Program-made: the position numbers and the translations under genes
Shown: positions 2,940-23,327 of the stretch, piece by piece
Position numbering within the stretch: position 1 is the first letter of the stretch
Layout: every line of letters begins with the position of its first letter
The notes under the pieces: model-generated
Databases searched by the model: none
What the model was told of the DNA's origin: nothing
What the model saw: the letters and a program-made list of their open reading frames with translations, nothing else
DNA from: Candidatus Gastranaerophilales bacterium
Lineage (GTDB): Bacteria > Cyanobacteriota > Vampirovibrionia > Gastranaerophilales > Gastranaerophilaceae
DNA length: 32,705 nt
NCBI GenBank assembly: GCA_947628355.1
Contig: CANQZO010000001.1
Location: 1-32,705, forward strand
Direction: 5' to 3'

Positions 2940-2975
2940 TGTTTATCCTTTTCAAAAAAAATTCTAACATACTAT

Positions 2976-3004
2976 TTGTAATTAATAAAGAAACATCGTA
3001 TTAT
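2976..3004 (+). promoter_or_regulatory. Candidate sigma70-type promoter of A3, positioned for a leaderless mRNA
   Basis: TTGTAA (2976-2981), exactly 17 nt, then TATTAT (2999-3004). ATG 3011 follows after 6 nt and there is no SD. Confidence 0.4.
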
Positions 3005-3010
3005 TGTTAT

Positions 3011-6095: not shown

Positions 6096-7631
6096 GTGAG
6101 AAATATTTTACAAAATAGGTTATTTTTCAATTTTGTAAATATTGTTATATTATTGGCAATATTTGTTTTTCTTCTGACCAAATTAAAATATTCCGTTATT
6201 ATTAATGACGATATGATGGATATTATATCCCGAACATTTTTGTTTTCGCATGGTCGCTTTATATCTGAATTATTCGGCATTTTATTAATTAAATTAATTC
6301 CCGATATTCTTGGTATAAATTATCAGGATTTTGCAATTGTTCAAGGTATATTAAAATCTGCAGTTTTTTGCGGTTTGATTTATGTCATTTCCATCGCGCC
6401 TTTTAGATTTAGACAAAAAAATATCAGTATTTGTTGTTATTCTGTTTTGTCCTTTTTTACAATTTTTTCTTCATTGATACAAATGGATTTTGTATGGTGT
6501 TTTGATACTTATCAGTTTTTTTCCGGTTATGTGGGATATTTATTTGTATATATTATTTTTTGGTATAAAATTGCGGATAATTATTTAAAGAATAAATCAC
6601 TTTCAAAAAAAGATTTAATTGTAATCTGCCTGCTTGCTTTTATTACGGCTCAAATTAATGAACTGTTAAGTATTAGTTGTACGCTTTTATTAATCCTTTT
6701 GTTATTTGATTCGTATATATCAAAAATAAAAGATAAAAAATATATAATTTATCCGTTAGTCGTCATTTTATTAACTGATATATTTGTTTATTTTTGTCAA
6801 GGCTCAAAAGAATTATGGGAATCTTATCAACTTTCAAATTATAATTTAATCTCATATTCGGAAATAATAAATTTTATTATTTTATTTTTTAAAAAAATAA
6901 TATTATATAATGCTTTTTTAATTGTTCCGATTTTTTGTTTCTTAGTATTCTTATATAAGATAAAAGAAATTAAAATAATTAGATATTTTATATATTCCAA
7001 TACAGGTTTTTTATTCTTCATACTTGGAACATATTTCCTTCCAAAAACATGTATTTATACTCAGCTTTCGGATAAATGGTGGTTTTTACATCCCGGAATA
7101 ATGATCGGTTATAATATATTTCTGCTTGTGTCGGCTTTATTTTTATTGGGAGTTATAAATGCAAAAACAACAAATGTTATGACAAAAAATTTATTTACTA
7201 TTGCATTGTTTTTATGTTGTTTAATTCATTGTTTTATTAATTTTAATATTGACAGAATAATGTGCCTTCATACATATATGCATACAAAAAGAATGATGTA
7301 TATAAATGATAAACTTTCATTGTTTTATTTAAAAAGAGGAGAAACAATAATATTACCTGCAGGACAACCATTTTATATACTTCCCGATGTCAATCCTTAT
7401 GATTTAGCCATATCAAGAAAATTTCATTCCCAAACTTTTGATAAAAATCGTGCAAGATATTTGATTTATCTGGAAAAAAATTACAATGTTAATGTTGACA
7501 GCGGAGTGACGTTTAAAGATAATAAAACAGCGATGAAAGAATATCTGGGTAAGGGCGGCACTTTTACGAGAGATGAACTTAAAAAATTAAAATTTTCTAA
7601 TATTAAAATGTCCGAGAAAATTTCGCAATAA
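6096..7631 (+). CDS. Polytopic membrane protein P1 (GT-C-like candidate; paralogue of P2 and P3)
   Basis: 511 aa with about a dozen hydrophobic spans by eye. KYSVIINDDMMD (DD at nt 6207-6212) directly follows TM1, then HGRFISE. There is a conserved NE block mid-protein and a conserved roughly 100 aa hydrophilic C-terminus (GG.FT..EL..L.FSNI). GTG start without a clear SD, so the start is uncertain. Confidence 0.75.
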   Translation: MRNILQNRLFFNFVNIVILLAIFVFLLTKLKYSVIINDDMMDIISRTFLFSHGRFISELFGILLIKLIPDILGINYQDFAIVQGILKSAVFCGLIYVISIAPFRFRQKNISICCYSVLSFFTIFSSLIQMDFVWCFDTYQFFSGYVGYLFVYIIFWYKIADNYLKNKSLSKKDLIVICLLAFITAQINELLSISCTLLLILLLFDSYISKIKDKKYIIYPLVVILLTDIFVYFCQGSKELWESYQLSNYNLISYSEIINFIILFFKKIILYNAFLIVPIFCFLVFLYKIKEIKIIRYFIYSNTGFLFFILGTYFLPKTCIYTQLSDKWWFLHPGIMIGYNIFLLVSALFLLGVINAKTTNVMTKNLFTIALFLCCLIHCFINFNIDRIMCLHTYMHTKRMMYINDKLSLFYLKRGETIILPAGQPFYILPDVNPYDLAISRKFHSQTFDKNRARYLIYLEKNYNVNVDSGVTFKDNKTAMKEYLGKGGTFTRDELKKLKFSNIKMSEKISQ

Positions 7632-7649: not shown

Positions 7650-9194
7650 ATGCAAAAAAGATTAGTCATAAAATTTTTTAATGTAACATTATTATTTTCA
7701 ATTTTTAGTTTTTTGATGTATAAATTTCGATATGCTATTGTTATCAATGATGATTTGGTTGATTTAATTGCAGGTCAATATAATTTTTATCATGGTCGTT
7801 ATTTAACGGAATTTATTTCAATTTTATTTATAAAATTAATACCTAAATATTTTAATATTAATATTCAGAATTTTGCAATTGTATCAGAAGGTCTTGTTAA
7901 ATCTTTATTTTTTATATTTTTATTATTTATCTTAAAAAAGACCTTTACCAAAAATTGTAAAATCTCAACTTTATTTGAAATTATTTTGTATCCGTTGTCG
8001 TTTTTTATGATATTTTCGATGTTATTTCAACTTGATTATATTAATGTATTTGATACAATGCAAACCTTTATGGGCTATATTTTTCCGTTTATTTTCTTTA
8101 TACTTTTCTGGTTGAAATTATACGATGTTTATTCAGTTAACAAAAAATCTGAACTTTCTTGTGGCTGGAATAATAAAAACTTAATTTTGCTTATTCTATA
8201 CACAATTATTGTAACTATGGGAAATGAAGAACTCAATTTTGCAGCATTAATTTTACTGTTATTTTTATTATTTAATAAAAGTATGTCCCGAAAATATGTT
8301 ATATGTTCATTAATTGCAATGTTTATAACAGGATTTTGGGTTTATTATTCAAGCGGCTTTTTAAAATTATATAATGATGCATATCATATTCATATAAATT
8401 TTGATTTGTCTTTAAACAATATTTATAAATATTTGGAAATGTTTATTAAATTTATAATTGCAGATAATATATTTTTATGGATACCATATGTTTCATTCAT
8501 TATATTTTTAAAGGCGGATAAAACTAATATAAACAAACAAAAAATTATAAAATATAGTTTTTATTCCGTAACAAGTTTTTTAATATTCTTTTTAAGTTTA
8601 TATTTATTAGGTAAATCTTATGGTTATATGATTGATAATAATTTTAAACTATATGAACCGTATTGGATTTTATATCCTGCATTACTGATAGGGCTTAAAA
8701 TAATCTTATACACTAATATACTTTATTTATTGGGAAATATCTTAACTCCGGACGTAAAAATTTATAAAGAATATATATTATATTTTATATTTTTAATCAG
8801 TTGTTTATTTTTTATATTCCAAAATTACAAGAATATTGAATTATCAGATAAAAACTCTAAAACTGTAATGTATATGACTGATAAAATTGCCGTTGAATAC
8901 TTTAAACAAGGTAAAACAGCAATATTGCCAAAGGATGATATTGAAATAATTATACCCGTAATAAATGATTTAATGCCCTATGATTTATTAACGGAAAATT
9001 ATAAGGGGAAAATATATTACAAAGAACAATATCCATATTTGTGGTACATAAGGATTGTATATAATGTTAATACCAATTACGGTATGATGTTTAAACCATC
9101 CGAGCAAGCGATGGAAGATTTTTATAAAATCGGGGGTGATTTTACAAAAAAAGAATTGGATGTTTTGGATTTTTCTAAATTGAATGTAAATTGA
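7650..9194 (+). CDS. Polytopic membrane protein P2 (GT-C-like candidate)
   Basis: 514 aa. RYAIVINDDLVD (DD at nt 7749-7754) follows TM1, then HGRYLTE and GNEELNF. The C-terminal block YNVNTNYGMMF...GGDFTKKELDVLDFSKLN aligns with P1 and P3. GGAAG lies 5 nt before the ATG. Confidence 0.8.
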   Translation: MQKRLVIKFFNVTLLFSIFSFLMYKFRYAIVINDDLVDLIAGQYNFYHGRYLTEFISILFIKLIPKYFNINIQNFAIVSEGLVKSLFFIFLLFILKKTFTKNCKISTLFEIILYPLSFFMIFSMLFQLDYINVFDTMQTFMGYIFPFIFFILFWLKLYDVYSVNKKSELSCGWNNKNLILLILYTIIVTMGNEELNFAALILLLFLLFNKSMSRKYVICSLIAMFITGFWVYYSSGFLKLYNDAYHIHINFDLSLNNIYKYLEMFIKFIIADNIFLWIPYVSFIIFLKADKTNINKQKIIKYSFYSVTSFLIFFLSLYLLGKSYGYMIDNNFKLYEPYWILYPALLIGLKIILYTNILYLLGNILTPDVKIYKEYILYFIFLISCLFFIFQNYKNIELSDKNSKTVMYMTDKIAVEYFKQGKTAILPKDDIEIIIPVINDLMPYDLLTENYKGKIYYKEQYPYLWYIRIVYNVNTNYGMMFKPSEQAMEDFYKIGGDFTKKELDVLDFSKLNVN

Positions 9195-10600: not shown

Positions 10601-10653
10601 AAAAAATTTAGTAAATAAAATAAATCCTAATTTTATTGTGATAAAATTTGTAT

Positions 10654-12225
10654 ATGAAAAATATTTTATCAATGTGGAATAAAAATAAATTTTTTTGTTT
10701 TTTTTGTACTGTATTTACTGTAATTACTTTATCTATATTATTTATAAAAAATATGAATTATGCAGTAGTTTTCGATGATGATATAAAAGACACTTTCGCA
10801 AATCGTTATTCACATTATCGTTATCTTACCACTTGGTTAGTTTTCTTTTTTGTGAAAATATTACCTGCCAATCTTAATATACATATCCAAGAATTTTCTT
10901 TTGTTTCTGAGGTTCTTTTTAAGGTTGTTTTATTTTCATTAATAGTTCTATCTATAACTTTTTCATTTTTTAGATTTAACAAAAATTATATTTTATTTTC
11001 GATTATTTATTCTATTACATTTTTTTTGGCTTATTCGCTGCCAAATTTGGTTTCATATAGGCCCTACTTAGAAGTTAACATATTTTTTATCGGTTATTTT
11101 TTTCCTATCGTTTTTTTTATTTTGTTTTGGTATAAAATGAGTGATTATTATATTGCTTGTGATTTAACTTCAAATAAATTATCTAAAAAAGAAAAATTTA
11201 TATTGTTTTTTTATTCTGTGCTGATTTTTCAAGGGAATGAAATTCTTTTATTTATATCTTCAATTTTTTCTTTCCTTTTATTTATAGATTTATTTATATT
11301 TGAAAAAAATAAAAATTTTGAAAAAAATAAATATGTTTTATTCCCTTTAATATCTTTTTTAATTATTGACATTTTTATATTGTTATTCCCTGGTGATATT
11401 ATTACAGATGTTTATAATATATCTTTTTATATACCAAATATTCATGAAATAAAAACTTTTGCTAATTTATTTTGGATAAAAATTTTTTACGAAAATATGT
11501 ATTTATGGATTTTAAATATAATCGGAATTTTATTATTACTTAAAATTGATGATAAAGGAAATAAACATAGAATTTTAAAATTTTGTTTATTTTCTTACTT
11601 AAGTATTTTAATAATTTGCGTTTCATGTTTATTTTTAGCCCCTAATTGTCCATATACCGAATATAAAATAAAATCATGGATACTTTGCCCTCATATAATA
11701 ATGCAGGTAAAAATGCTTTTATTTTTAATATGTTTATATATCTCCGGAATTTTGACTGTTTCTGAAATTAATATATTTAAAAAACTTCGATATTTTAATT
11801 ATTTTTTAATAACAATTCTTTTGATTAGCTGTATTATTTATTTAATTCCTTTTTTTAAATATACAGAATTAAGAACTTATTATAATCCTCAAATGAAGAA
11901 ATTATTATATATTTCTGATAAAATATCATTATTTTATTTAAAACAAGGAAAGACAATTATTTTTCCGTATAATAAATATATCCAAAATTCAATATTAAAC
12001 GTAAACATTTCGGGTTCATTAGAAAATTATAATAATGAAATTTTTCATAAAACTGATGATGTCGCTTATTTAAAATACCTTGAAATAATATATAAAATTG
12101 ATACTTCACCCGGAATTATGCTTATGGATACCGATAAGGCAATCTCTTTATATTTTAAAAACGGAGGGCGGCTTACAACAAAGGAAATTGAAAATATGGA
12201 TTTTTCTAAATTAAACAATAACTAA
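10654..12225 (+). CDS. Polytopic membrane protein P3 (GT-C-like candidate)
   Basis: About 523 aa from ATG 10654. NYAVVFDDDIKD (nt 10774-10782) follows TM1, then QGNEILLF. The C-terminal block YKIDTSPGIMLM...NGGRLTTKEIENMDFSKLN aligns with P1 and P2. Confidence 0.8.
   Translation: MKNILSMWNKNKFFCFFCTVFTVITLSILFIKNMNYAVVFDDDIKDTFANRYSHYRYLTTWLVFFFVKILPANLNIHIQEFSFVSEVLFKVVLFSLIVLSITFSFFRFNKNYILFSIIYSITFFLAYSLPNLVSYRPYLEVNIFFIGYFFPIVFFILFWYKMSDYYIACDLTSNKLSKKEKFILFFYSVLIFQGNEILLFISSIFSFLLFIDLFIFEKNKNFEKNKYVLFPLISFLIIDIFILLFPGDIITDVYNISFYIPNIHEIKTFANLFWIKIFYENMYLWILNIIGILLLLKIDDKGNKHRILKFCLFSYLSILIICVSCLFLAPNCPYTEYKIKSWILCPHIIMQVKMLLFLICLYISGILTVSEINIFKKLRYFNYFLITILLISCIIYLIPFFKYTELRTYYNPQMKKLLYISDKISLFYLKQGKTIIFPYNKYIQNSILNVNISGSLENYNNEIFHKTDDVAYLKYLEIIYKIDTSPGIMLMDTDKAISLYFKNGGRLTTKEIENMDFSKLNNN
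11299..11334 (+). repeat. In-frame 18-bp tandem duplication inside P3 (FEKNKN/FEKNKY)
   Basis: tttgaaaaaaataaaaat (11299-11316) is followed directly by tttgaaaaaaataaatat (11317-11334), 17/18 identical. Confidence 0.7.
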
Positions 12226-13261: not shown

Positions 13262-13331
13262 TCTTTACTCCCGTTGTTTACATTATACCAAAATCAAGTA
13301 TTTTATTATATATTTTTATTTAGAGGTATTT

Positions 13332-15263
13332 ATGAGCGAAAATTATGCAATTTGCACGTTTCCTTTTAACGCCGCACAAATAAGCATGCAAGGTGATGTT
13401 TATGTCTGCTGTCCTCCGTGGAGCAGCTCATATTCATTCGGGAATATATACGAGCAGAGTTTTGACGAAATATGGAACGGAGACCGTGCAAGAGAATTTC
13501 GCAGGCAGTTCATTAATAATGATTATAAATATTGTAAACTCGATTTATGCGTTAAAGATTGCGCGCAAAAAATAATTCCGTCAGAAACGGTTGAAAAGCC
13601 TAAAACTTTTATATTCTGCTATGATACCATATGCAACGTGAAATGCATCTTTTGCCGCAGCTGTCACCAAAAGCAGGATTTATCTTATTTTGATGAACAC
13701 ATGGATGAGATAATCTCAAATATGCTTGAAAATGCGCAAAATGTTGTTCTGTCAGGAGTAGGAGAGGCTTTATTCAGTCCGCATTCAAGAAAACTTATAA
13801 AGCGAATATCGGAGATGTTCCCTAATATTAAATTCTCACTTATTTCAAACGGAATTTTATGCGATGAAGAAAATTTAAAAGAACTCGGTATAATTGATAA
13901 ATTGCTTTCAATAACTGTTTCACTCCACGCCGTTAAAAAATCAACTTATGATAAACTTGTTAAAAACGGTGATTTTGACAAGGTTATGGAAAATTTAAAA
14001 TTTCTGTCACAGCTAAAGCAAAAGGGCAAACTCGACAGATTTATTTTAAATTTTGTCGTTACTTCGTGTAATTACCGAGAAATGAGCGATTATATTAAAA
14101 TGGCTGAAAAACTCGGCGCAACTGTTGGTTTTTTGGAACTTTTAAAACTTGAAACTAATGAAGATGTTTATAATGAACTTAACATATTAAATGAAAATCA
14201 TCCTAAGTATAACGATTTTGTAAGGGTTATGAAAAACCCTATATTCCGCTCCTGCAAATGTACAATTAACGATACAATGCTTAATTTAAGACCAATTGAT
14301 AAACCAAATAAAATAGTAAAATATTTTAGCATTTTTATCACTAATATTCTTATAATATTTTTATTATTGTATATATTAAATTTCTTAATTTATTTTAGGA
14401 CATTTAAAAATGATATAAATAACAATAATTTTAATGATTTTCGCTCAATTTTAACTCAATATAAAAATTTTATGTCACAAGATGTTAGTCGTAAAAATAC
14501 TTATGATATTCTTATAAATGATAAAGATAATTGGTATAGAAGAATAGAAAATAAAACTTCCTCAAAACCTTCAATAGTTTTATTTGGCTGTTCTTTTGTA
14601 TGGGGAACAAATTTAGAAGATAATAAAACATTTTCATATCAACTGGGTAAGCTGACAAAGCGTCCTATTTATAACAGAGCCTTAGGGGGTTGGGGTGTTC
14701 AACACATGCTTTATCAACTTCAGCAAGATGAATTTTATAATATCATAACTTCAAAATCCCTCCCCCCTCAATATGTAATTTACACTTTTTTTAGAGGACA
14801 TTATACAAGAATTGTTACCTCAGATGCATTGTATAGTATGCCCTGCTATTTAGTATTTTATAAACACAAAAAAAATGGGGAATTTGTATTAAAAAATAGA
14901 AGTTTTTTTAATTCGAAAATTATAATACATCATTTTATAATTCATGACATTATTATTCCACTAATAGAAAATAAAAAATCATATCAATCCTACATTGATG
15001 AAATTATGTTTGATTATTTAATGGCATCAAAGAAAGAACTTAATAAACACCTTCCAAATACAAAATTTGTAATATTCTTTTATGACGAGCCGTATACACA
15101 AGATATAATTAGAAAATTAGAAGAAAATGGTTTTATTATTATATCTAATAATGATATGGGAATTAATCAGAAGGAATTAAAATATATTTTATCGGATAGA
15201 CATCCCAGTGCATTATATTGGGAGGAAGCGACACCCAAAATTATAAAAAAACTACATTTATAA
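13332..15263 (+). CDS. Fusion protein: class B radical SAM (B1), single TM helix, SGNH/GDSL-like domain (S1)
   Basis: 643 aa. The N-terminus CTFPFNAAQISMQGDVYVCC...FGNIYEQSFDEIWNGDRAREF...CKLDLCVKDC is a twitch/SPASM-like pattern. CNVKCIFC is at nt 13632-13655. The hydrophobic segment YFSIFITNILIIFLLLYILNFLIYF spans about nt 14322-14396. LFGCSFVWG has G-C-S at 14586-14594. ALGGWG and SDRHPSALYW match SGNH blocks II and V. AGAGG SD. Confidence 0.85.
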   Translation: MSENYAICTFPFNAAQISMQGDVYVCCPPWSSSYSFGNIYEQSFDEIWNGDRAREFRRQFINNDYKYCKLDLCVKDCAQKIIPSETVEKPKTFIFCYDTICNVKCIFCRSCHQKQDLSYFDEHMDEIISNMLENAQNVVLSGVGEALFSPHSRKLIKRISEMFPNIKFSLISNGILCDEENLKELGIIDKLLSITVSLHAVKKSTYDKLVKNGDFDKVMENLKFLSQLKQKGKLDRFILNFVVTSCNYREMSDYIKMAEKLGATVGFLELLKLETNEDVYNELNILNENHPKYNDFVRVMKNPIFRSCKCTINDTMLNLRPIDKPNKIVKYFSIFITNILIIFLLLYILNFLIYFRTFKNDINNNNFNDFRSILTQYKNFMSQDVSRKNTYDILINDKDNWYRRIENKTSSKPSIVLFGCSFVWGTNLEDNKTFSYQLGKLTKRPIYNRALGGWGVQHMLYQLQQDEFYNIITSKSLPPQYVIYTFFRGHYTRIVTSDALYSMPCYLVFYKHKKNGEFVLKNRSFFNSKIIIHHFIIHDIIIPLIENKKSYQSYIDEIMFDYLMASKKELNKHLPNTKFVIFFYDEPYTQDIIRKLEENGFIIISNNDMGINQKELKYILSDRHPSALYWEEATPKIIKKLHL

Positions 15264-15308: not shown

Positions 15309-16292
15309 ATGGCATATTTATCATGTGAATTTGTTGAAAACGGAATGTGTTTTATATATGATGCAGCGGTTTTATGTTCATATTCAATGTGCATGAAATT
15401 TGAAGCGATAAAAATAATAGAAGACTATAAAGGGGAATTGTTTGATTGGGATAAAATTAGGCAGATAAAACAGGAATACCGTGACAGATTTGCCAAAAAT
15501 GATATTCCGCCAATCTGCCAAGGCTGCCCGAGTTTAAAAGTTAAAGACTGGGCAGGTGATATGCAGTTAAAGTATATTCTTATCAACCACTGGGAAAACT
15601 GCCCGCTTGATTGCATATATTGCCATACGCATGAACGCAAAAAAGAGCTTAATAAAATGAAACCGTGGAAGATACTTCCTGTTTTAAAAGATGCGCTTAA
15701 AAATAACATGTTAAGCTATGAGGGAAACGTTAATATTACGGGCGGAGAACCTACTGTTTTAAAAGAATTTCCCGATTTAATGAAGTTCTTTCTTGAGAAA
15801 ACAAATATTTTTATTATGATAAATACTGCAGCCGTTGATTATTCCAAGTGGATTAGAAAAGCTATAGAATTAAAACGCTCAGCGCCTACAATATCACTTG
15901 ACGCAGGCACAAGAGAAACTTATAAAAAAATTAAAAATGTTGATTGCTTTAAAAAGGTTATTAAAAATATTAAAAAATATCAAAAAGGTTTAGACCCTAT
16001 TCGTAACAGTTTAATAGGTTTAAAATATATTTTTATTCCCGGATATAACGATACTTTAGAGGAAATTCAAAGCTGGCTTAAAATAGTTGAAGATTTAGGA
16101 ATTACTAATCTTCAATTAGAGCTTGAACATCACTGGTATGAAAAAAATAAATACTGCCCCGATAATGTTAAGGAATATATTGAATTGGTTGTAAAATATG
16201 CCCATCAGCACAAATGCAACCTTTCTTACAGAGAAATTCTTACTACCTGCGGTTACACCGAAGTGATAAGATATATTGATAACGGCAGGTAA
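15309..16292 (+). CDS. Radical SAM enzyme, class A paralogue A8
   Basis: 327 aa. Motifs CPLDCIYC, NITGGEPTVLKEF, SLDAGTRETYKKIKNVDCFKK and LKYIFIPGYNDT. GAGGAA SD. Confidence 0.9.
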   Translation: MAYLSCEFVENGMCFIYDAAVLCSYSMCMKFEAIKIIEDYKGELFDWDKIRQIKQEYRDRFAKNDIPPICQGCPSLKVKDWAGDMQLKYILINHWENCPLDCIYCHTHERKKELNKMKPWKILPVLKDALKNNMLSYEGNVNITGGEPTVLKEFPDLMKFFLEKTNIFIMINTAAVDYSKWIRKAIELKRSAPTISLDAGTRETYKKIKNVDCFKKVIKNIKKYQKGLDPIRNSLIGLKYIFIPGYNDTLEEIQSWLKIVEDLGITNLQLELEHHWYEKNKYCPDNVKEYIELVVKYAHQHKCNLSYREILTTCGYTEVIRYIDNGR

Positions 16293-16293
16293 T

Positions 16294-17319
16294 ATGGCAG
16301 ATAAACACATATATTGCCCCAATCCATATATTTTGGCTGAAATAATGCCGTTTGGTAATGTATATCCTTGCAGCTGCGGCTGGATTAGAGGATATTCTTT
16401 CGGTAATATTTTTGAAAAATCTTATGATGAAATCTGGAACGGGGACAGGGCAAAAGAATTCAGACAAAAACTTTATGATAACGATTTTTCGCTTTGCCCG
16501 GGGTGTCAAAATTTGGAAATTCTGCAAGAAATAAATGACAATGAGCCTAAACTTGTTTCCGCTCCGCCGGAACGTATATTGTTAGGATTAGATGAATATT
16601 GTGATGTTAAATGTATTTTTTGCAGACCGGAAAATTACAAGGTTAATCCTAATCTTATTCCTAAGGATAAAGAGGATAAACTTCTTGAAATACTTACTCC
16701 GTGGCTGAAAAATGCTAAATATGTTAAGACAAATGCGGTAGGCGAGGTTTTTGCAAGTAAAATTTCAAGAGATTTAATTAAAAATATTGCGCTTAACTTC
16801 CCTAACATAAAGTTTGAAATAATTACGAACGGAATACAATGTACAAAAGAAAATATCGAGCAATTAAATCTTACAAACAGAATCTCCATGATGACGGTTT
16901 CTCTGCATGCATTCAAAGAAGAAACATACAATAAAATAGTTAAGGGCGGAAATTATAAAAAAGTAATCGAAAATCTTTATTATCTTTCAGAACTGAAAAA
17001 ATCGGGGCAGATAGAAAGATTTGAGCTCCATTACACTGTTACAAGCATAAACTATAAAGAAATGCCTTTGATGATTAAATTTGCCCGCGAAATCGGCGCT
17101 AATATAAGATTTCTTGGTCTTGACTGTTCAAGGGACTTAGAAGAACTCTATAAAAAAATTAACATTCAAGATAAACATCATCCTAAATACAATGACCTTG
17201 TTAAAGTTGTTCATTCAAAAGAATTTGTGAATGCTAAAGATATTGTTGTTCAAGGCTGGGAATATTTTACAGGCTTGAAAAAAAATTCTTTTTTTACATA
17301 TATAAAAAATAAGTTTTAG
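16294..17319 (+). CDS. Radical SAM enzyme, class B paralogue B2 (N-terminal twitch/SPASM-like domain)
   Basis: Starts at ATG 16294 (MADKHIYCPNPY...), 1 nt after the A8 stop. Motifs CPNPYILAEIMPFGNVYPCSC, FGNIFEKSYDEIWNGDRAKEF, CPGC, CDVKCIFC, NAVGEVF, ITNGIQC and VSLHA. Confidence 0.85.
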   Translation: MADKHIYCPNPYILAEIMPFGNVYPCSCGWIRGYSFGNIFEKSYDEIWNGDRAKEFRQKLYDNDFSLCPGCQNLEILQEINDNEPKLVSAPPERILLGLDEYCDVKCIFCRPENYKVNPNLIPKDKEDKLLEILTPWLKNAKYVKTNAVGEVFASKISRDLIKNIALNFPNIKFEIITNGIQCTKENIEQLNLTNRISMMTVSLHAFKEETYNKIVKGGNYKKVIENLYYLSELKKSGQIERFELHYTVTSINYKEMPLMIKFAREIGANIRFLGLDCSRDLEELYKKINIQDKHHPKYNDLVKVVHSKEFVNAKDIVVQGWEYFTGLKKNSFFTYIKNKF

Positions 17320-17358: not shown

Positions 17359-18294
17359 ATGAAAAAGAAAATTTTAAATGTCTTAATTATAGTTGTTTCT
17401 TTAATTGTAATTATACTTTTAATTAATTACGGATTGTATTTATATTTAATTAATACAAATAAAATTGATAAATCGCAAGTTTCTGCTTTTATCAGAAAAA
17501 ATATAACACCTGAAAATATGTTAAACCTTAAATATAGAAATCCAAGCGGATTGAATTATAAAAATAAAAAATCAATAGTAGTTTTTGGCTGCGGGTATGC
17601 TGAAGGTGTTGACTTAAATGATAATCAAACATTTGAAAAAAAATTATCAGATTATTTAAAAGTTCCTGTTTATAATCAAGGAATGGGCGGCGGTTTTATT
17701 CAACATACTATTTTGGCAGTACAAAGCGGTCAGATGAATGATATTATAAAAAAGAGTAATATTGCAGTTTATATTTTGCCGACTCTAAACGATTCCATCA
17801 GATTAAAAGTATTCCCAGACAGAAACTATTTTAGTCCGACATTTTTATACTCAAAAAATTTATATCCTGTTTTTGAAGAAAAAAATGGACAACTGGTTTT
17901 AAGAAATTCTAAATTTCCGTCATTTACAGGAAATACTTTTAACAGACTTTTGACTAAATTATATTTTCAAAAAAAATATTTAAATAAGGGTAATTTACTA
18001 ACTAAATATACAGCTCAGCACTTTGTAAAATTAAATAATGAGTTAAAAGCAATTAACCCTAATATCAAACTTGTTGTAGCAATTTTTTGGGATTTAGAAC
18101 AAAATACCCGTGAATTTAATAAATTAATGCAAGATGAAAATATTTCGATTATACATATTGGTAATATAAGTAAATCAATTAATGTTGATTTAGCAACAGA
18201 TGAATATAGAACGGAACAAAATAAACATCCGAATGAAAAAACTTGGGATGTTTTAACACCTCTGATTGCTAAAGAACTAAAAGCAATAAAATAG
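17359..18294 (+). CDS. Membrane-anchored SGNH/GDSL-like protein S2 (degenerate catalytic motifs)
   Basis: 311 aa with an N-terminal signal-anchor (KKKILNVLIIVVSLIVIILLINYGLYLYLI). VVFGCGYAEG has Gly where the paralogues have Ser. GMGGGF is present. C-terminal NKHPNEKTW lacks the Asp found in the paralogues. AAGAGG SD. Confidence 0.6.
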   Translation: MKKKILNVLIIVVSLIVIILLINYGLYLYLINTNKIDKSQVSAFIRKNITPENMLNLKYRNPSGLNYKNKKSIVVFGCGYAEGVDLNDNQTFEKKLSDYLKVPVYNQGMGGGFIQHTILAVQSGQMNDIIKKSNIAVYILPTLNDSIRLKVFPDRNYFSPTFLYSKNLYPVFEEKNGQLVLRNSKFPSFTGNTFNRLLTKLYFQKKYLNKGNLLTKYTAQHFVKLNNELKAINPNIKLVVAIFWDLEQNTREFNKLMQDENISIIHIGNISKSINVDLATDEYRTEQNKHPNEKTWDVLTPLIAKELKAIK

Positions 18295-18308: not shown

Positions 18309-18338
18309 ATCGGCACATTTCTAATGTGCCGATTTTTT
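18309..18338 (+). terminator. Rho-independent terminator closing the + operon (B1-S1, A8, B2, S2)
   Basis: A perfect 11-bp stem, ATCGGCACATT (18309-18319) with AATGTGCCGAT (18323-18333), has a 3-nt loop and is followed by TTTTT. It starts 15 nt after the S2 stop. The hairpin also lies just 3' of the convergent S3 gene, but a minus-strand transcript would have no U-tract. Confidence 0.75.
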
Positions 18339-19260
18339 ATATTTTTGTTAATTCATTTGCTATTGTGGGAATTAAACTATCCCAATATTTTTCATTAGGA
18401 TGAAAATCATTATCAATACACCATTTGCTGCGAGTATTTATATCCATAACTTCAATTTTGGTTAATTTAGGAATATCTATTACATTATAATTTTTTAATA
18501 TGTTATTTTCAAAGTCGAATTCGGATGAAAATTTTACTATTACAAATTTAGAGTTTGGAAATAAAGTTTTTATTTCTTTATCAATTGATAATAAATATAA
18601 ACTGAATAATTGTTCTATGTATTTATTATAACCAATGCTGGTTATATAATTATAAATTAAAAAACTGTAAAAATATGAATTTTCTAATATTAGAGGATTT
18701 TTTTGAAGTAATTTTTTATTTTTAATTTTATAAAATATTTCCATCTCATCTTTAAAAGTAGGTGTTACACGCATAATCATACGTCTTATATGGTCGGGAT
18801 TATAAAAATATAAAATAAATTCGGGTTCTTTTTTTATTGATTGCTTAAATTTACTATATTGGAGAAGGTAATATATTTGATTTAAACCACCTCCTGGATA
18901 TGCAAAATTATATACAGGTCTTTTTAATTTTTTTGATATTTTATATGCAAAAGTTTGATTTTCATTTAATCCTACTCCATACGCCATTGAACATCCAAAT
19001 ACAATTATTGCTTGGGGAGGGGTATTTCTATAGTTTTGACCGTAATATTTGAATGAAAATAAATTTTTGTTATTTAACGGAAAACGAATTGATAAATCTT
19101 TTTCAAAACTCTTTGCTTTATAAAAACTTAAAAATTTGAATGTACTAATTTCACAAGGAAAAATTGTTAATAATTTTTTATATGATACAAATTCAATAAT
19201 AAAAATTACCATAAAAATAAATGTAATATTAACTAAAACTATTGAAAATAAGCGTTTCAC
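18337..19260 (-). CDS. Membrane-anchored SGNH/GDSL-like protein S3
   Basis: 307 aa with an N-terminal anchor (FSIVLVNITFIFMVIFIIEFVSY). Motifs IVFGCSMAYGVG, YPGGGL and DNDFHPNEKYW. GTG start at 19260 with AAGGAG 6 nt upstream, embedded in the last codons of A9. Confidence 0.65.
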   Translation of the reverse strand: MKRLFSIVLVNITFIFMVIFIIEFVSYKKLLTIFPCEISTFKFLSFYKAKSFEKDLSIRFPLNNKNLFSFKYYGQNYRNTPPQAIIVFGCSMAYGVGLNENQTFAYKISKKLKRPVYNFAYPGGGLNQIYYLLQYSKFKQSIKKEPEFILYFYNPDHIRRMIMRVTPTFKDEMEIFYKIKNKKLLQKNPLILENSYFYSFLIYNYITSIGYNKYIEQLFSLYLLSIDKEIKTLFPNSKFVIVKFSSEFDFENNILKNYNVIDIPKLTKIEVMDINTRSKWCIDNDFHPNEKYWDSLIPTIANELTKI

Positions 19261-19261
19261 T

Positions 19262-20257
19262 TTATTCTCCTTGATGTAAGCCTATTCCTACATCTAAATC
19301 CTTCCCTTTTAAAGTTCTGTATTGATTTGCGACACCGTAGAATTGAATATCCAGACCGCGCTGTTTTACCGCAGCAACAATATAATCGTACAAATCATCA
19401 ATATAAGCGGGAATGTTATTTGAATTTCTTGCAAGCCAATCAGCTTCAAAATCAATTATTACTCGTTGAATACCCACCCTTTGAGTTTCATCAAGCCATT
19501 TATTAACGTCTTCTTTTGTGTCATTTACTTTTGGAATAATTATATATTTGGAACGCACCATTTTTTTATTACTGCCCTGAGCTTTTACGTATTTCTTTAA
19601 AGTGTCCATGACCTTATTATAAGCGTCAATTTGCTTTATTTGTTTAAATTTCTGCCTATCCCCGCAATCTACACTTGCAGTTACTGATAATGTATCTGTT
19701 TTAAGTCCATTTAAAACAGATTTAACAGGTTTTATGGCATTAGTATGAACCATTATATTTTTTTCGCCCTTTTTTATAAAGAAGTTTGTTATATCATCAA
19801 ATTCTCTTAAACTTGCAGGCTCGCCTCCGGAGTATGCCAGTTCTCCGGAGTAATCGATTAACCCCATTTTATCAAGTTCTTTTATTATAGGCATTATTTT
19901 ATAGCGTTTTTTTGGTTTTTCAAAATCTGATGCAAGACGGTAGCAGTATGTGCAATTGCAGTTGCATTCTGACCAGTGTGCTATTTGTATCCATTTGAAT
20001 TTTGTATTATCATCCCAGTCTTGTTCTGTCAATGCAAAGCAGCCTGTGCAATGGCTGTCAATTATTCCTTTTTTAAAGTTTTTTCTGATTTCATTAATAT
20101 TGGAAAGAAGTTCATTCCAATTTAATTTTTCACCCCAGTAGTCTTTTTTTATAAATAAAGGCTCGGGGGTATTATTTCCCATAAAACAACAAAGTTTTAT
20201 TGAATTGTATTCAAACCTTAATCCGTTTTGTATGTTTGAACAACTAATATATCTCAA
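19262..20257 (-). CDS. Radical SAM enzyme, class A paralogue A9
   Basis: 331 aa. Motifs CNCNCTYC, AYSGGEPASLREF, SVDCGDRQKFKQIKQIDAYNK and KYIIIPKVNDT. TTG start at 20257 (the (M)RYISC N-terminus matches A1, A6 and A8), with GGAG upstream. Confidence 0.85.
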   Translation of the reverse strand: MRYISCSNIQNGLRFEYNSIKLCCFMGNNTPEPLFIKKDYWGEKLNWNELLSNINEIRKNFKKGIIDSHCTGCFALTEQDWDDNTKFKWIQIAHWSECNCNCTYCYRLASDFEKPKKRYKIMPIIKELDKMGLIDYSGELAYSGGEPASLREFDDITNFFIKKGEKNIMVHTNAIKPVKSVLNGLKTDTLSVTASVDCGDRQKFKQIKQIDAYNKVMDTLKKYVKAQGSNKKMVRSKYIIIPKVNDTKEDVNKWLDETQRVGIQRVIIDFEADWLARNSNNIPAYIDDLYDYIVAAVKQRGLDIQFYGVANQYRTLKGKDLDVGIGLHQGE

Positions 20258-20283: not shown

Positions 20284-21255
20284 TTATTTTAAAAGTTTTA
20301 ATTTGTCAGTGATTAAATTTGTAATTTCAATCCAACATCTTTCATTAGGGTGCCCGTCATTAGGAATATGATATTGGTCCCACTTTCTTTCTATATCCTT
20401 AATATAATCTTCCACTTCAACAAACATGATATTTTCTTTTTCAAGTTCTTTCCATCTTGGTGAATGTGTAATTAAATCTGTATCGGGTTCATCATGGAAC
20501 GATATTACAATCATTTTTATATTCGGGTTTATTTGCTGCATTTCTTTTTGAATGGTTAAAAGATGCAGTTTTAGATTATCAAACATATAATCTTGAACAT
20601 ATTTATTATTTAATCGTGTAAGTATCTTTGCATACCAAGTTTTTTGAATATATTTATATAAATAAGAACCTTCAAGTACCGGCAGGTATGATTTATGCAA
20701 TATTAATTGTGTATTATTTTTTGTCTTTTTTACATCATACTTTGGCCAAACAAACTGTGTTGCAAATCCGTTAGAATTACTATGAATTCTCCATACATGT
20801 TCTCCGATTAATATATATATAACGTAATCACTTTTTTTGATAATGTCATCTATTTCATGTGAGCGAATACGCATTATCGGAAACTGCGGACTTTGACCGG
20901 AACTTGAAAAATTATATACGGGTCTTTTTAATCGTTTTGATAATTTATAACCAGGTTCTTGCGTAGATGATAATAATGCCCCATATCCATAAGAACATCC
21001 AAACATTATTATAGCATTTTTATTATATTCCAGTCCTGATGGTTTTCTTATTTCATAGTATTTTTTTGATATTTCATAATCCATTAATTTTCTTTTTAAA
21101 GTATATGGATTGTTTTTCAAACTTAACTGAACCGGAACTCTTTCCAGCTTGTTATAAAAATATTTATAAATAACCCAATTTAATAAAAATAATATACCTA
21201 TAGATATAATAATATTCACAAGAATTATTATAAAAATTTTTTTATATTTGTCCAT
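20284..21255 (-). CDS. Membrane-anchored SGNH/GDSL-like protein S4
   Basis: 323 aa with an N-terminal anchor (IFIIILVNIIISIGILFLLNWVIY). Motifs IMFGCSYGYG, SSSGQS and PNDGHPNERCW. Confidence 0.65.
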   Translation of the reverse strand: MDKYKKIFIIILVNIIISIGILFLLNWVIYKYFYNKLERVPVQLSLKNNPYTLKRKLMDYEISKKYYEIRKPSGLEYNKNAIIMFGCSYGYGALLSSTQEPGYKLSKRLKRPVYNFSSSGQSPQFPIMRIRSHEIDDIIKKSDYVIYILIGEHVWRIHSNSNGFATQFVWPKYDVKKTKNNTQLILHKSYLPVLEGSYLYKYIQKTWYAKILTRLNNKYVQDYMFDNLKLHLLTIQKEMQQINPNIKMIVISFHDEPDTDLITHSPRWKELEKENIMFVEVEDYIKDIERKWDQYHIPNDGHPNERCWIEITNLITDKLKLLK

Positions 21256-21307: not shown

Positions 21308-22327
21308 ATGAAAACAATATGTGCACATCCTTTTAAAAGTATTCAAGTGCAAAATACAGGAGAAATTTATTGCTGCTGCTGTTATTGGACTGATTTTTAT
21401 TCATTCGGCAATATTTTTGAACAGTCTTTTGACGAGATTTGGAACGGGGATAGGGCAAAAGAATTTCGCAGACAGTTTATTGAAAATAATTATAAATTCT
21501 GTAAATTAGATGTTTGTGATCCTGCATATTCTGACATCACACCTGAATTTGAAGCACCGTATCCTAAACGTATTGAATTCAGTTATGACAGGCATTGTAA
21601 TGTACGCTGTATATTCTGCAGAAAAGAGAAAAACAAAGAAGAAGAAAAATTTAACAGACAAAAAGAAAAAAGGATTGAAGATAACTTTGACAGGATTTTT
21701 ACTCCGATTATTGAAAAAGCAGAGATTGTCGAACTTAATTCTGCAGGAGAGCTGTTTGCAAGCAGGCATTCAATTGAAATATTAAAAAAAATTATTAATA
21801 TTAATCCTGATATTAAATTTGGAGTTATATCAAACGGAATATTATTTACTAAGGAAACAACGCAAAAACTGGGACTTGAAGACAGGTTAGATTATGCAAT
21901 AATTTCTATTCACTCTGCGACTGAAAATACATATAATAAACTTGTTGAAAGGGGCAATTTTAAAGCCGTTATTGAAAATGTTAAATATTTATCGGAATTG
22001 AAAAAGCAGGGAAAATTAAAAACATTACAGTTAAATTTTGTTGTTACTTCTTTAAACTATAAAGAAATGAAAGACTTTGTTAAATTTGCTATAGATATGG
22101 ATGGAACCGCATTTTTTATTAACTATCACAGGCAAATTGACTCTGATGAACTTGAAAATAACTTGGATGTGACTTTAGAACACCACCCTAAGCATAATGA
22201 ACTGGTTAAAATCCTTGCTGATCCGATTTTTAACAACGAGCATTGTTTTGTTAATGATTATCTTAAAAATTTAAAGCCCGTTAAACTTTCCTTGTTGCAG
22301 AAAATCAAAAATTTACTTAAAAAATGA
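21308..22327 (+). CDS. Radical SAM enzyme, class B paralogue B3 (N-terminal twitch/SPASM-like domain)
   Basis: 339 aa. Motifs CAHPFKSIQVQNTGEIYCCCC, FGNIFEQSFDEIWNGDRAKEFRRQF, CKLDVC, CNVRCIFC (nt 21596-21619), NSAGELF, ISNGILF and ISIHS. It is the closest paralogue of the rSAM half of the 13332 fusion. Confidence 0.9.
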   Translation: MKTICAHPFKSIQVQNTGEIYCCCCYWTDFYSFGNIFEQSFDEIWNGDRAKEFRRQFIENNYKFCKLDVCDPAYSDITPEFEAPYPKRIEFSYDRHCNVRCIFCRKEKNKEEEKFNRQKEKRIEDNFDRIFTPIIEKAEIVELNSAGELFASRHSIEILKKIININPDIKFGVISNGILFTKETTQKLGLEDRLDYAIISIHSATENTYNKLVERGNFKAVIENVKYLSELKKQGKLKTLQLNFVVTSLNYKEMKDFVKFAIDMDGTAFFINYHRQIDSDELENNLDVTLEHHPKHNELVKILADPIFNNEHCFVNDYLKNLKPVKLSLLQKIKNLLKK

Positions 22328-23305
22328 GCCCTTATCTAAAATTTCTTTTACGTATTCCCAGATATTCGCTTCAATGTTGTATTGCGCACATTTTTCTTTA
22401 TAAAACTTAAATAAATCGTAATAATAATCGGGAATTTTAAATTCTCCCTCAGAAACAAATTCGCTGTCGCATTGGTCTATCATTAATTCAGAGTTTGTAA
22501 TACCGATTTCGTGCATTAGTTCAATATATTTTGTTAGTTCTTCTGTGTTATCATTAACTCCGCGGACTAGTATATATTTTAATCTTAACAGAATCGGCAA
22601 TTTTACGTATTTTTTAAGATTTTCCACTACATCATCAAATTTATCAACGGTTTTAATTTTTTTAAATGTTTCGCGGCACCCCGAATCTATTGAAATATTT
22701 ACGTCCACAAAGGTTTTACCTGCAATCTGTGCAATTTTAGGCAGATATTTTATTCCGTTTGTTGCTATTTCAACCCTTTTCACTCCGTTTTTTATAAAAA
22801 TATCTACAAGCGGTTCAAACTCATCTAAAACAGATACATTTCCGCCCTGAAAATGAACATCAAGCTCTTTTTTATCAATGATATCCTGCCTGTATAATTC
22901 CTCTATTATCGGCAGTAAATCATAATAATCGCTTTTTTTCGATTTTAAAACAATTTTCCTTTGTGATAAATACTGTTCACAGCAATATATGCAAGCACAG
23001 TCGCATTGCTTAAAGTGTTTTACTATTATTAAATTTGCTTTAGGCAGTTTACTAAATCTGCTGATTAATAACGGTTTAGGATTTTCCTGCTCGTGCAAGT
23101 CAAAGCAGTCATTGCATTCGGCAGGGATTTTGCCTTCATCAAGCATTCTTATAAGTGAATTTCTTTTTTTAATAATATCTTTTACCCGCTTTGGTGAGGG
23201 TATATCAATAGATGGCCCTGTTCTTGTTGCACAGCAGTAAAAGACTTTAAGCGCATCAAAATTTAGAGTCTCGTTTAATCTTTTGCAATAGTACCTTTTT
23301 TTCAT
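22313..23305 (-). CDS. Radical SAM enzyme, class A paralogue A10 (QGG[DN] subclade)
   Basis: Motifs CDCACIYC, HFQGGNVSVLDEF, SIDSGCRETFKKIKTVDKFDD and LKYILVRGVNDN. The start is set at ATG 23305 (MKKRYYCKRLNETL) by alignment with the paralogues. The track start at 23386 would overlap A11. Confidence 0.85.
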   Translation of the reverse strand: MKKRYYCKRLNETLNFDALKVFYCCATRTGPSIDIPSPKRVKDIIKKRNSLIRMLDEGKIPAECNDCFDLHEQENPKPLLISRFSKLPKANLIIVKHFKQCDCACIYCCEQYLSQRKIVLKSKKSDYYDLLPIIEELYRQDIIDKKELDVHFQGGNVSVLDEFEPLVDIFIKNGVKRVEIATNGIKYLPKIAQIAGKTFVDVNISIDSGCRETFKKIKTVDKFDDVVENLKKYVKLPILLRLKYILVRGVNDNTEELTKYIELMHEIGITNSELMIDQCDSEFVSEGEFKIPDYYYDLFKFYKEKCAQYNIEANIWEYVKEILDKGSFFK

Positions 23306-23311
23306 AACTTC

Positions 23312-23321
23312 ATTATATAAT
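23312..23321. promoter_or_regulatory. Palindromic ATTATATAAT giving overlapping divergent -10 hexamers for A10 and A11
   Basis: TATAAT on the + strand (23316-23321) lies 6 nt before ATG 23328. TATAAT on the - strand (23312-23317) lies 6 nt before ATG 23305. The whole spacer is only 22 bp and has no SD on either side. Confidence 0.45.
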
Positions 23322-23327
23322 ACTTTT

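Follow-up and report, generated by a model that had tools for sequence, protein, structure and literature searches.

Does an open reading frame (ORF) that runs from a radical S-adenosylmethionine (radical-SAM) enzyme through a single membrane helix into an SGNH-fold domain represent a real gene, and what does it imply for the two protein families that it joins? The question is raised by ORF 13332–15263, the fusion gene studied here, which lies in a 32,705 nt stretch of DNA from a Candidatus Gastranaerophilales bacterium (the window). The ORF is located on the plus strand, codes for 643 amino acids (aa) plus a stop codon and is open throughout. Pfam matches and alignments agree with the three-part frame described in an earlier note on this DNA, and we conclude that the ORF truly joins, within one reading frame, a radical-SAM enzyme, one transmembrane (TM) helix and an SGNH-fold domain. 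We favour, with modest confidence, the view that this fusion is real and evolutionarily young and that it belongs to a hypervariable, surface-glycan-modifying array of gut Gastranaerophilales.

The array extends from 886 to 32535 and features 20 radical-SAM domains in 32.7 kb. Sixteen of them are of type A (about 330 aa, PF04055 only) and four of type B (N-terminal SPASM/twitch domain followed by PF04055), the latter comprising the fused domain, B_F, and the stand-alone proteins B2, B3 and B4. The window also holds four stand-alone S proteins of about 300–320 aa with an N-terminal hydrophobic anchor (S2 to S5; 17359–18294, 18337–19260, 20284–21255 and 26439–27350), three membrane proteins designated M, an ApbA/PanE-like reductase and, at its left edge, a lipoate-protein ligase.

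Parts of the fusion gene

The N-terminal half contains two Pfam domains. A SPASM/twitch auxiliary Fe-S domain (PF13186; aa 8–69, positions 13353–13538) was detected with an E value of 3e-15 and 56.7 bits at a cut-off of 21.5, which places the protein in the SPASM/twitch subgroup; the N-terminal location of this domain is atypical. Its cysteines are found at residues 8, 26, 27, 68 and 73, and Cys77 (13560–13562) follows just past the Pfam envelope. PF04055 (Radical_SAM) matches aa 100–232 (E 4.5e-12, 46.9 bits, cut-off 29.5), as in members of the radical-SAM superfamily, and the match includes a CxxxCxxC motif formed by C101, C105 and C108 (13632–13655). The radical-SAM core and its C-terminal extension, which ends at an L-R-P-I motif (aa 100–322, 13629–14297), run collinear to B2, B3 and B4, and equally to the unfused orthologues, which have 334–341 aa. 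Comparison of aa 6–322 with B3 (21308–22327) yielded 43.5% aa identity (E 3e-96), and the identity was 41% to B2 and 34% to B4. The collinearity of residues 1 to about 325 with B3, as read by eye in the earlier note, was thereby confirmed, and its estimate of about 75% nucleotide identity around the EIWNGDRA motif compares with 79.8% over 114 nt.

The closest relatives of this half with a solved structure, as judged by sequence, are BtrN (2-deoxy-scyllo-inosamine dehydrogenase; fusion aa 7–82 versus the twitch domain at 168–240, phmmer E 1e-7) and BlsE (cytosylglucuronate decarboxylase; 7vob, E 8e-6 to the radical-SAM part). Both share a radical-SAM core and a Cys-rich twitch domain with the fusion; the similarity is partial and low, and the twitch domain of BtrN is C-terminal whereas that of the fusion is N-terminal. 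The NCBIfam model NF033640, which describes a subfamily with N-terminal twitch domain (cut-off 170 bits), gave 53 bits for the fusion and 27–58 bits for B2, B3 and B4. On these matches the N-terminal half is classed as an N-terminal SPASM/twitch radical-SAM protein with an NF033640-like layout, below the curated threshold of that family. The label "class B radical SAM" used in the earlier note was a private one and is misleading, since no match to the B12-binding domain PF02310 was found in the fusion even at E ≤ 1. The same test detects true B12-type radical-SAM genes in two related loci (L002, 2701–4092; L008, 19833–20960).

The junction RPIDKPNKIVK (aa 320–330, 14289–14321) has no in-frame ATG, GTG or TTG left; unfused orthologues possess a basic amphipathic tail and then a stop codon at this position. 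The junction is followed by the TM helix (aa 331–355, 14322–14396), with the sequence YFSIFITNILIIFLLLYILNFLIYF, which is homologous to the N-terminal signal-anchor of the stand-alone S proteins and contains Asn338. It is the sole strongly hydrophobic stretch of the protein (Kyte-Doolittle means over 19 residues of 1.7–2.6, centred on aa 336–350), in line with the single helix proposed before. A juxtamembrane helical linker (aa 356–410, 14397–14561), modelled as helices by AlphaFold2, is the fastest-evolving part. The remainder, aa 411–643 (14562–15260), was assigned to the SGNH/GDSL fold on the basis of AlphaFold2, Foldseek and conservation. Alignment of aa 332–641 with S3 gave E 8e-26 with the anchor helix included, and aa 410–641 (approximately) align with S2, S4 and S5 at E 1e-17 to 4e-18 with 26–27% identity. 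The motifs LFGCSFVWG, GGWG and DRHPS, on which the relationship to S2–S5 had been recognised, are all present.

Pfam and NCBIfam scans provided no usable family for the S domain. No Pfam GDSL match was obtained for the fusion or for S2–S5, and NCBIfam NF047474 (LA_2486, cut-off 300) scored 18–23 bits for S3, S4 and S5 and nothing for the fusion. Since a PDB sequence search with the S-family profile also yielded nothing significant (best E 0.89), the fold was obtained via AlphaFold2 and Foldseek. The model of the C-terminal construct (pLDDT 94.5, pTM 0.91, 28-sequence alignment) shows a long N-terminal helix spanning residues 2–37 of the construct, two short helices and then an alpha/beta domain. 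Foldseek returned 42 PDB matches at E ≤ 1e-3, all of which are SGNH/GDSL or CE2/CE3 esterases. Among them are the acetyl-xylan esterase Est2A (4dev, E 1e-6), CE2 esterases, platelet-activating factor (PAF) acetylhydrolase and E. coli TesA (1jrl, TM score normalised to target 0.70–0.71); the SGNH domain of OafB (6se1) follows further down the list (E 4e-3). In these comparisons the C-terminus has the three-layer alpha/beta/alpha architecture of the SGNH fold.

The conserved residues of the domain are G419-C420-S421, G425, N448 with G453, H490, R493, D622-x-H624-P625 and W630, and the fusion retains all of them. Among 170 family members, G419, S421, G425, N448, R493, H624, P625 and W630 are conserved at 96–99%, with values of 99% for Ser421 and Gly425, 98% for His624, 95% for Cys420 and 87% for His490. 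Ser421 (14592–14594) is the predicted nucleophile, as its position in block I matches the serine of GDS, and His624 (15201–15203) in the block V motif D-x-H-P is the predicted general base on grounds of family conservation. In block I, serine and glycine are present and cysteine replaces aspartate in 95% of the family; a canonical LGDSY was found in P0059. Block I of S2 reads G-C-G and has lost the serine; this protein may be inactive or use the cysteine. N448-x4-G453 in block II resembles the N-x4-G of TesA by eye, the glycine being 72% conserved. Block III features no conserved asparagine: the fusion reads F-R-G-H490-Y-T-R493 and the family consensus is D-H-x-x-R. In block V, an invariant proline follows His624. 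Of the 170 members, 88 have the acid only at −2 (D-x-H, with a column frequency of 63%), 37 have it only at −3 and 13 have none. These patterns suggest an SGNH enzyme family of the Ser-His (±Asp) kind, whose hallmark is G-C-S in block I and whose block III is non-canonical.

Compared to known enzymes, the domain shares its fold and the block I Ser with the CE2 esterases Est2A and CtCE2 and with E. coli TesA/TAP, and it also has an Asn...Gly resembling that of block II and a His-Pro resembling that of block V. It differs from these soluble proteins in its membrane anchor, in having G-C-S rather than G-D-S and His/Arg where block III has Asn, and in a D-x-H whose acid is poorly conserved. DltD/PatB-type proteins consist of an N-terminal signal-anchor and an extracytoplasmic SGNH-like domain and work with an MBOAT partner. 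The stand-alone S proteins share this layout, while the window contains no MBOAT gene; DltD and PatB gave no sequence match, and the list of fold matches, which gives 50 of 1,018 at E ≤ 10, does not include them. The S family itself is large (7,733 clusters at E ≤ 1e-3, 783 at E ≤ 1e-30). Its best 150 matches are all stand-alone anchored proteins of about 300–345 aa, a few reaching 428 aa, and none of these 150 has the fused architecture.

Fused, split and S-less states at one chromosomal site

Ten related loci were taken from a scan of a genome collection and one more, L001, was obtained via protein search; all were annotated against the gene types of the window. The closest relatives of the window are metagenome-assembled genomes (MAGs) of Candidatus Gastranaerophilales (Melainabacteria), mostly from rabbit gut, and they have the array too, altered by the gain and loss of genes. 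Three states were observed at one chromosomal site directly downstream of the B_F orthologue: fused, split and without S. This variable site is situated between the B_F and A4 orthologues in every locus that covers the downstream region except L010, where genes of the A_2 and A_7 types follow B_F instead of A4.

The fused state was found in the window, in L003 (94% identity, cut by a contig edge), in L002 (642 aa) and in L001 (P0001, 637 aa, 70% identity overall). As regards frame continuity in independent assemblies, a check suggested in the earlier note, the three other Gastranaerophilales MAGs encode fused orthologues with 70–94% identity and no internal stop. The database search for the same architecture, suggested in the same place, succeeded within these MAGs and found nothing among the best 150 of the 7,733 S-family matches. 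In the split state of L009 (3604–5566), a radical-SAM protein of 337 aa and an S protein of 325 aa are encoded in different frames with a 29-nt overlap. The S ORF starts with MRYLKIFAF and is preceded by AAGGAAA-N5-ATG, and the arrangement is identical in NCBI, ENA and Logan assemblies (L009, L024, L025, L026). Six loci (L004, L005, L006, L007, L008 and L010) have no S at the site; their radical-SAM orthologue has 334–341 aa, is 79–95% identical and terminates in CTINDTMLNLKPVNFIKSLKNRFLK before the stop codon. Unfused orthologues with 93–95% identity continue from LKPV into a K-rich tail.

The family motif L-[KR]-P-[VI] is immediately followed by the fusion junction, and the S anchor helix replaces the amphipathic tail. 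The junction peptide LNL[KR]PIDK[PT]NKI[IV]KYF is common to the window, L002 and L003 (for L003 it was read from the translation). The allele of L001 keeps an in-frame AGGGGA-N9-ATG at the former S start (around 4720–4760), from which a separate S protein might be made in addition to the fusion. This internal start has been lost (ATA GTA / ATT ATA) from the alleles of the window, L002 and L003, so that their S domain can be made only as part of the fusion. Because split, S-less and fused states occur at one site, we conclude that a stand-alone S gene was captured downstream of the radical-SAM gene and then fused to it. The fusion is thus a recent, strain-variable event of a small clade, and the site can do without the S cassette. 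The position behind the B_F orthologue (ahead of A4 in most loci) seems to be a hot spot for insertions. We also weighed phase variation via a homopolymer and dismissed it: at the junction, the window lacks any long homopolymer and the split form has no more than a run of five A.

Pairwise ratios of non-synonymous to synonymous substitution rates (dN/dS) between fused alleles are 0.03–0.08 for the radical-SAM part, 0.13–0.27 for the SGNH part and 0.27–0.94 for linker and TM helix (aa 323–400), with dS ranging from 0.1 to above 2. Judged by these ratios, both halves of the fusion are under purifying selection, and each has retained its catalytic residues. The window allele is a mosaic. Its radical-SAM half shows 93–97% nucleotide identity to the unfused allele of L004 versus 88–91% to the fused allele of L003, while its S half is 92–97% identical to that of L003; dS between window and L003 is 0.61 for the radical-SAM half and 0.13 for the S half. 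This indicates that the S module behaves as a cassette that is exchanged by recombination.

Several further arrangements were observed in these families. In L004 the slot is occupied by an unrelated gene on the other strand (2844–4667, minus strand), coding for a polytopic membrane protein of 607 aa without Pfam match. Other fusions comprise tandem B-B proteins of about 672 aa, B joined to a different radical-SAM domain (691 aa) and B joined to an FkbM-type methyltransferase (730 aa); they were seen in P0002/P0003/P0004, P0009 and P0013/P0014. An ORF of L010 (15577–17547, 656 aa) combines an A-type radical-SAM module in its N-terminal half with a PF04055 match in its C-terminal half.

Could the fusion be a neutral accident, in which two unrelated neighbours were joined by a tolerated loss of a stop codon in compatible topology, with the SGNH domain keeping a housekeeping role in the envelope? 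The sheer size of the S family (7,733 clusters) and the frequent location of its members among housekeeping genes with no radical-SAM gene nearby are consistent with such an origin. So are the restriction of the fusion to a small clade, the dispensability of the cassette and the near-neutral linker (dN/dS up to 0.94). However, five S domains are present in one array, interleaved with radical-SAM genes in shared predicted operons, and the fused state has outlasted divergence to 70–94% identity and the loss of the internal start. We therefore regard an accidental fusion as unlikely and prefer a functional role of both domains in the array.

Membrane placement and the pairing of B and S

C-terminal helices that are basic and amphipathic, such as those of MinD and FtsA, classically serve as peripheral membrane anchors. 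The 16 stand-alone B homologues whose C-terminal region has an LxP[VI]-type motif all carry a tail with a net charge of +2 to +9. The hydrophobic moment of the tail is among the top 26 of about 350 windows in 15 of the 16 and among the top 6 in 12, and the tail of B3 (approximately 22270–22324) ranks 4th of 329. These properties suggest that the tails are likely peripheral membrane anchors and that the B enzymes work at the cytoplasmic face. The motif L-K-P-V with a strongly basic amphipathic tail was seen in B3 and in the stand-alone B homologues P0005–P0026.

For the fusion, Fe-S/SAM chemistry fixes the N-terminal half in the cytoplasm, and the SGNH half must consequently be extracytoplasmic; as the Gastranaerophilales bacteria are regarded as diderm, this means periplasmic. 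The only sensible topology is N-in/C-out, as the earlier note had also argued, with the Fe-S/SAM half tethered to the inner face of the membrane and the SGNH half in the periplasm. Because the C-terminus of the radical-SAM enzyme and the N-terminus of the S protein would already both have been at the cytoplasmic face, the fusion would have been topologically free.

An analogy to OatA-type enzymes had been drawn from this inside-outside arrangement. Like OatA and OafA/OafB, the fusion is one polypeptide with an extracytoplasmic C-terminal SGNH domain acting, in those systems, on a surface glycan. The N-terminal part of OatA and OafB is a multi-pass AT3 domain that carries the acetyl group across the membrane, whereas that of the fusion is a soluble radical-SAM enzyme with one helix. 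No match to Acyl_transf_3 (AT3) or MBOAT was found in the fusion, which has a single hydrophobic segment and falls outside the AT3-SGNH class. With one helix and no such domain, the protein alone provides no acyl relay across the membrane, and the analogy fails mechanistically.

The earlier note had generalised the fusion to a rule, by which every B has an S partner within one gene. The gene positions are as it described: B2 and S2 are on the same strand with a 39-nt gap, S4 (minus) and B3 (plus) are divergent with a 52-nt gap, and S5, K and B4 form a row of minus-strand genes, one boundary being an 8-nt overlap and the other an 11-nt gap. Of the three B genes that stand alone, two adjoin an S gene and the third is two genes away from one. 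As a rule, the statement did not hold. Shuffling of the gene order (29 genes) gave P = 0.09 for B-S adjacency in the whole window and P = 0.53 within the B/S sub-block, and the ratio of B to S genes in orthologous arrays is 4:1 (L006), 3:1 (L008), 4:1 (L010) and 5:2 (L002). The absence of an excess of adjacency and the varying ratios indicate that B-S pairing is not general.

The contexts of further relatives agree with this. The closest stand-alone relatives of the fused S (P0039–P0041, 46–52% identity) are located beside GGGtGRT and SNF2-helicase genes, with only A-type radical-SAM genes some kb off. P0047 belongs to a tandem of three S genes that adjoins a ribosomal-protein operon, P0046 stands alone, and the distant B homologues P0017 (in a radical-SAM array) and P0005 (lone) have no S neighbour. 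Outside the fusion clade, no B-S adjacency was found in the contexts of P0005, P0017, P0039, P0040, P0041, P0046 and P0047. By the logic of Rosetta-stone fusions, the two parts do occur separately elsewhere (split in L009 and L024–L026, and as widespread stand-alone B and S proteins), but linkage beyond the fusion-bearing clade was not seen in the seven contexts and is at odds with the varying ratios.

These data bear on the strongest form of partnership, in which B and S proteins could work only as physical partners across the membrane, with one S for each B, and the fusion would merely make the bond covalent. In its favour are the fusion itself and the adjacent split form at the same site, the presence of an S within two genes of every B of the window, and the recurrence of S next to the B3 orthologue in L005, L006, L008 and L009 and next to B2 in L002, L003, L004 and L006. 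A further hint is Asn338 of the S anchor helix, which is 83% conserved among the 170 family members; this leaves room for some intramembrane partner of S. Neither the P values nor the B:S ratios fit a one-to-one complex, however, and neither do the six B_F loci without an S behind them, the S genes located away from B (P0039–P0041, P0046, P0047), the B genes without S (P0017, P0005) or the lack of a fused form among the best 150 of 7,733 S-family representatives. An obligate partnership is distinctly unlikely. What stands of the partnership inferred from the fusion is a shared pathway and a shared membrane location; the ratios, contexts and P values speak against an obligate or general one-to-one B-S complex.

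The array and its proposed function

The window is 97% coding and belongs to a low-GC genome, with many overlapping or abutting genes on alternating strands and intergenic gaps of 79 nt at most within the array. The 70-nt divergent intergenic region ahead of the fusion gene has a promoter-like TTTACA-16-TATTTT (13277–13304, plus strand; 9 of 12 consensus positions), which is weak evidence since such matches are not enriched over shuffled sequences. A Shine-Dalgarno-like AGAGG (13322–13326), read from the sequence, is located 5 nt ahead of the fusion ATG. The fusion gene is followed, all on the plus strand, by the A-type gene A4 (15309–16292, identified by Pfam), which is second in the predicted operon after a 45-nt gap, by the stand-alone B paralogue B2 (16276–17319, Pfam and alignment) and by the anchored SGNH-like paralogue S2 (17359–18294, alignment). 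A terminator-like hairpin (18309–18333) with an 11-bp stem, five G-C pairs and a T run lies between the convergent S2 and S3. Based on the AGAGG, gaps of at most 45 nt and the hairpin at its end, the fusion gene appears to head an operon F-A4-B2-S2.

Two other features of the neighbourhood were noted. As listed, the divergent radical-SAM ORFs 22313–23386 (minus) and 23328–24323 (plus) share 59 nt at their 5' ends; since the alignment of the former to its orthologues begins at residue 28, its TTG start has probably been set too far upstream. An ApbA/PanE-like NAD(P)H ketoreductase is located beside a B4-type radical-SAM gene in the window (25451–26446, minus), in L006 (18275–19246) and in the more distant L017 (6532–7527). 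We speculate that this ketoreductase and a BtrN-like dehydrogenase could form an oxidise/re-reduce pair for epimerisation.

The three M proteins (6096–7631, 7650–9194 and 10648–12225) are paralogous polytopic proteins of 511–525 aa without Pfam or NCBIfam match and with only seven database relatives. A PADLOC scan detected only generic viperin-like radical-SAM similarity in A-type genes and provided no usable family for the S domain or the M proteins. The AlphaFold2 model of M has a pLDDT of 82, and its best Foldseek PDB matches are all GT-C enzymes (STT3, DPY19, PglB, AglB, AftB and AftA), with probabilities of about 1 at E values of 3e-3 to 0.4 and TM scores of 0.31–0.41. The seven leading informative matches have E values of 3e-3 to 0.1 and TM scores of 0.36–0.41. 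A DDxxD motif is conserved directly after TM1. On the strength of these models, the M proteins probably constitute a new GT-C family.

Carbohydrate enzymes are also found outside the window. The array of L008 contains a GDP-mannose 4,6-dehydratase (Gmd) and a GT2 (L008 genes 928–1953 and 18854–19846), and members of the B family elsewhere are fused to an FkbM-type methyltransferase domain. As an observation on gene content, Gmd, GT2 and true B12-binding radical-SAM genes occur in related arrays (L008; L002, 2701–4092) and none of them in the window. BtrN and BlsE act on carbohydrates. The GT-C-like M proteins, Gmd and GT2, the FkbM fusion, the relationship to BtrN and BlsE, the lack of room for precursor genes and the lack of an exporter or peptidase among the ORFs of at least 100 aa together favour a strain-variable role of the array in the diversification of surface glycans.

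As the alleles show, an S gene directly downstream of B_F was joined to it by a frame change or the loss of a stop codon, with the S signal-anchor helix taking the place of the basic amphipathic C-terminal tail of the radical-SAM enzyme. For the action of the fusion, the following course of events is proposed. The radical-SAM half would edit a sugar linked to polyprenyl phosphate (or a nucleotide-activated sugar) at the cytoplasmic face; the edited sugar or glycan would be flipped and then transferred by the GT-C-like enzymes of the locus. Outside, the SGNH half would remove or transfer an acyl group on the same glycan via Ser421-His624 (±Asp622). The two domains would act in sequence on opposite faces of the membrane, with nothing passed through the protein, and the fusion would mainly give co-expression and a permanent membrane tether at no topological cost.

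Some results weigh against this proposal. The positive-inside bias is weak, with a charge of +3 before the helix and +1 after it. Because block III is non-canonical (His490/Arg493 for Asn) and block V reads DxH rather than DxxH, we can only infer that the SGNH domain is catalytically competent. The glycan assignment builds on fold-level similarity and on Gmd and GT2 from outside the window. Every fused example stems from a MAG, and three belong to one series of rabbit-gut studies; the exact product of the window ORF had no match in the contig collection.

A role in the modification of membrane lipids would place the same proteins in another pathway. Radical-SAM enzymes that modify lipids are known, and here they would act on tails or head groups, with the SGNH domain as a periplasmic lipase or (lyso)phospholipid acyltransferase of the TesA/PAF-acetylhydrolase type. 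The basic amphipathic tails and the TM tether, which put the radical-SAM enzymes at the bilayer, suit this idea, as do TesA/lysophospholipase L1 and PAF acetylhydrolase among the best structural matches (TM score normalised to target 0.70) and a weak NCBIfam match to the tetraether synthase Tes, which belongs to the A-type paralogue 15309–16292 and not to the fusion ORF. The GT-C-like transferases in the window and Gmd and GT2 in the related array are sugar enzymes, though, the nearest solved radical-SAM relatives act on carbohydrates, and the top SGNH matches are acetyl-xylan and CE2 esterases. A lipid-modifying role is an unlikely though still live alternative.

SPASM-domain radical-SAM enzymes are classically peptide maturases, and the array might be read as a cluster for ribosomally synthesised and post-translationally modified peptides that are processed outside by the SGNH domain. 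Apart from the SPASM class, weak NCBIfam similarity to sactipeptide and other maturases points in this direction, but all these scores are far below the cut-offs. With 97% coding sequence and array gaps of at most 79 nt, there is no room for precursor genes, and the ORFs of at least 100 aa are all of radical-SAM, S, M, ApbA or LplA type, with no peptidase or ABC exporter among them. This reading is highly improbable.

An assembly or sequencing artefact, by which a missing base or a chimeric contig joined adjacent genes, might be suspected because the natural split version differs by a frame shift in an A/G-rich stretch, the assemblies are metagenomic throughout and the exact product is on record nowhere else, but it is excluded for practical purposes as far as sequence comparison goes, given that the frame is equally continuous in three other MAGs, which stem from different samples, that the junction peptide is conserved with L002 and L003 despite many synonymous differences and that the window allele has no in-frame S start and neither amphipathic tail nor stop codon for a separate radical-SAM protein.

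Returning to the glycan role of the array, a pathway for the whole locus can be outlined only tentatively, and we hold it to be possible rather than probable. About 20 membrane-tethered radical-SAM enzymes would radically edit sugars linked to polyprenyl phosphate, by oxidation, epimerisation, decarboxylation or C-C chemistry, and the new GT-C and G-C-S SGNH enzymes would follow, resulting in a combinatorial diversity of glycans. In the Gtr (GtrA/B/C) and Arn (ArnC/D/E/F/T) systems, a lipid-linked sugar is made or edited at the cytoplasmic face and flipped before a GT-C enzyme transfers it. By analogy, the window codes for GT-C-like transferases, a related array for a GT2, and the enzymes apparently are situated at the cytoplasmic face. 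To our knowledge, no radical-SAM step is part of the Gtr and Arn pathways; no flippase gene was recognised at this locus.

The earlier note knew of no radical-SAM-SGNH protein, and a search of a literature library likewise found no description of such a protein or such an array there. As both domains belong to known superfamilies, the fusion represents a new architecture and not a new kind of system. The link that the fusion and the local adjacency seemed to offer did not generalise once orthologous loci were compared. The site itself displays absent, adjacent-overlapping, fused-with-relic-start and fully fused states within one clade and thus illustrates how a bitopic bifunctional enzyme arises.

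Radical-SAM enzymes are, as far as we know, almost always soluble cytoplasmic proteins. An allele hard-wired into the membrane and unfused relatives with membrane-seeking tails both suggest that this family works at the bilayer, which would narrow the search for its substrate to lipid-linked intermediates. Three families without Pfam model are present at the locus: the G-C-S anchored SGNH proteins with thousands of clusters, the small GT-C-like family and the N-twitch radical-SAM enzymes. The whole array with these three unannotated families is a more interesting object than the fusion alone. If the proposal is true, radical editing of lipid-linked sugars would represent an undescribed type of pathway in gut Melainabacteria.

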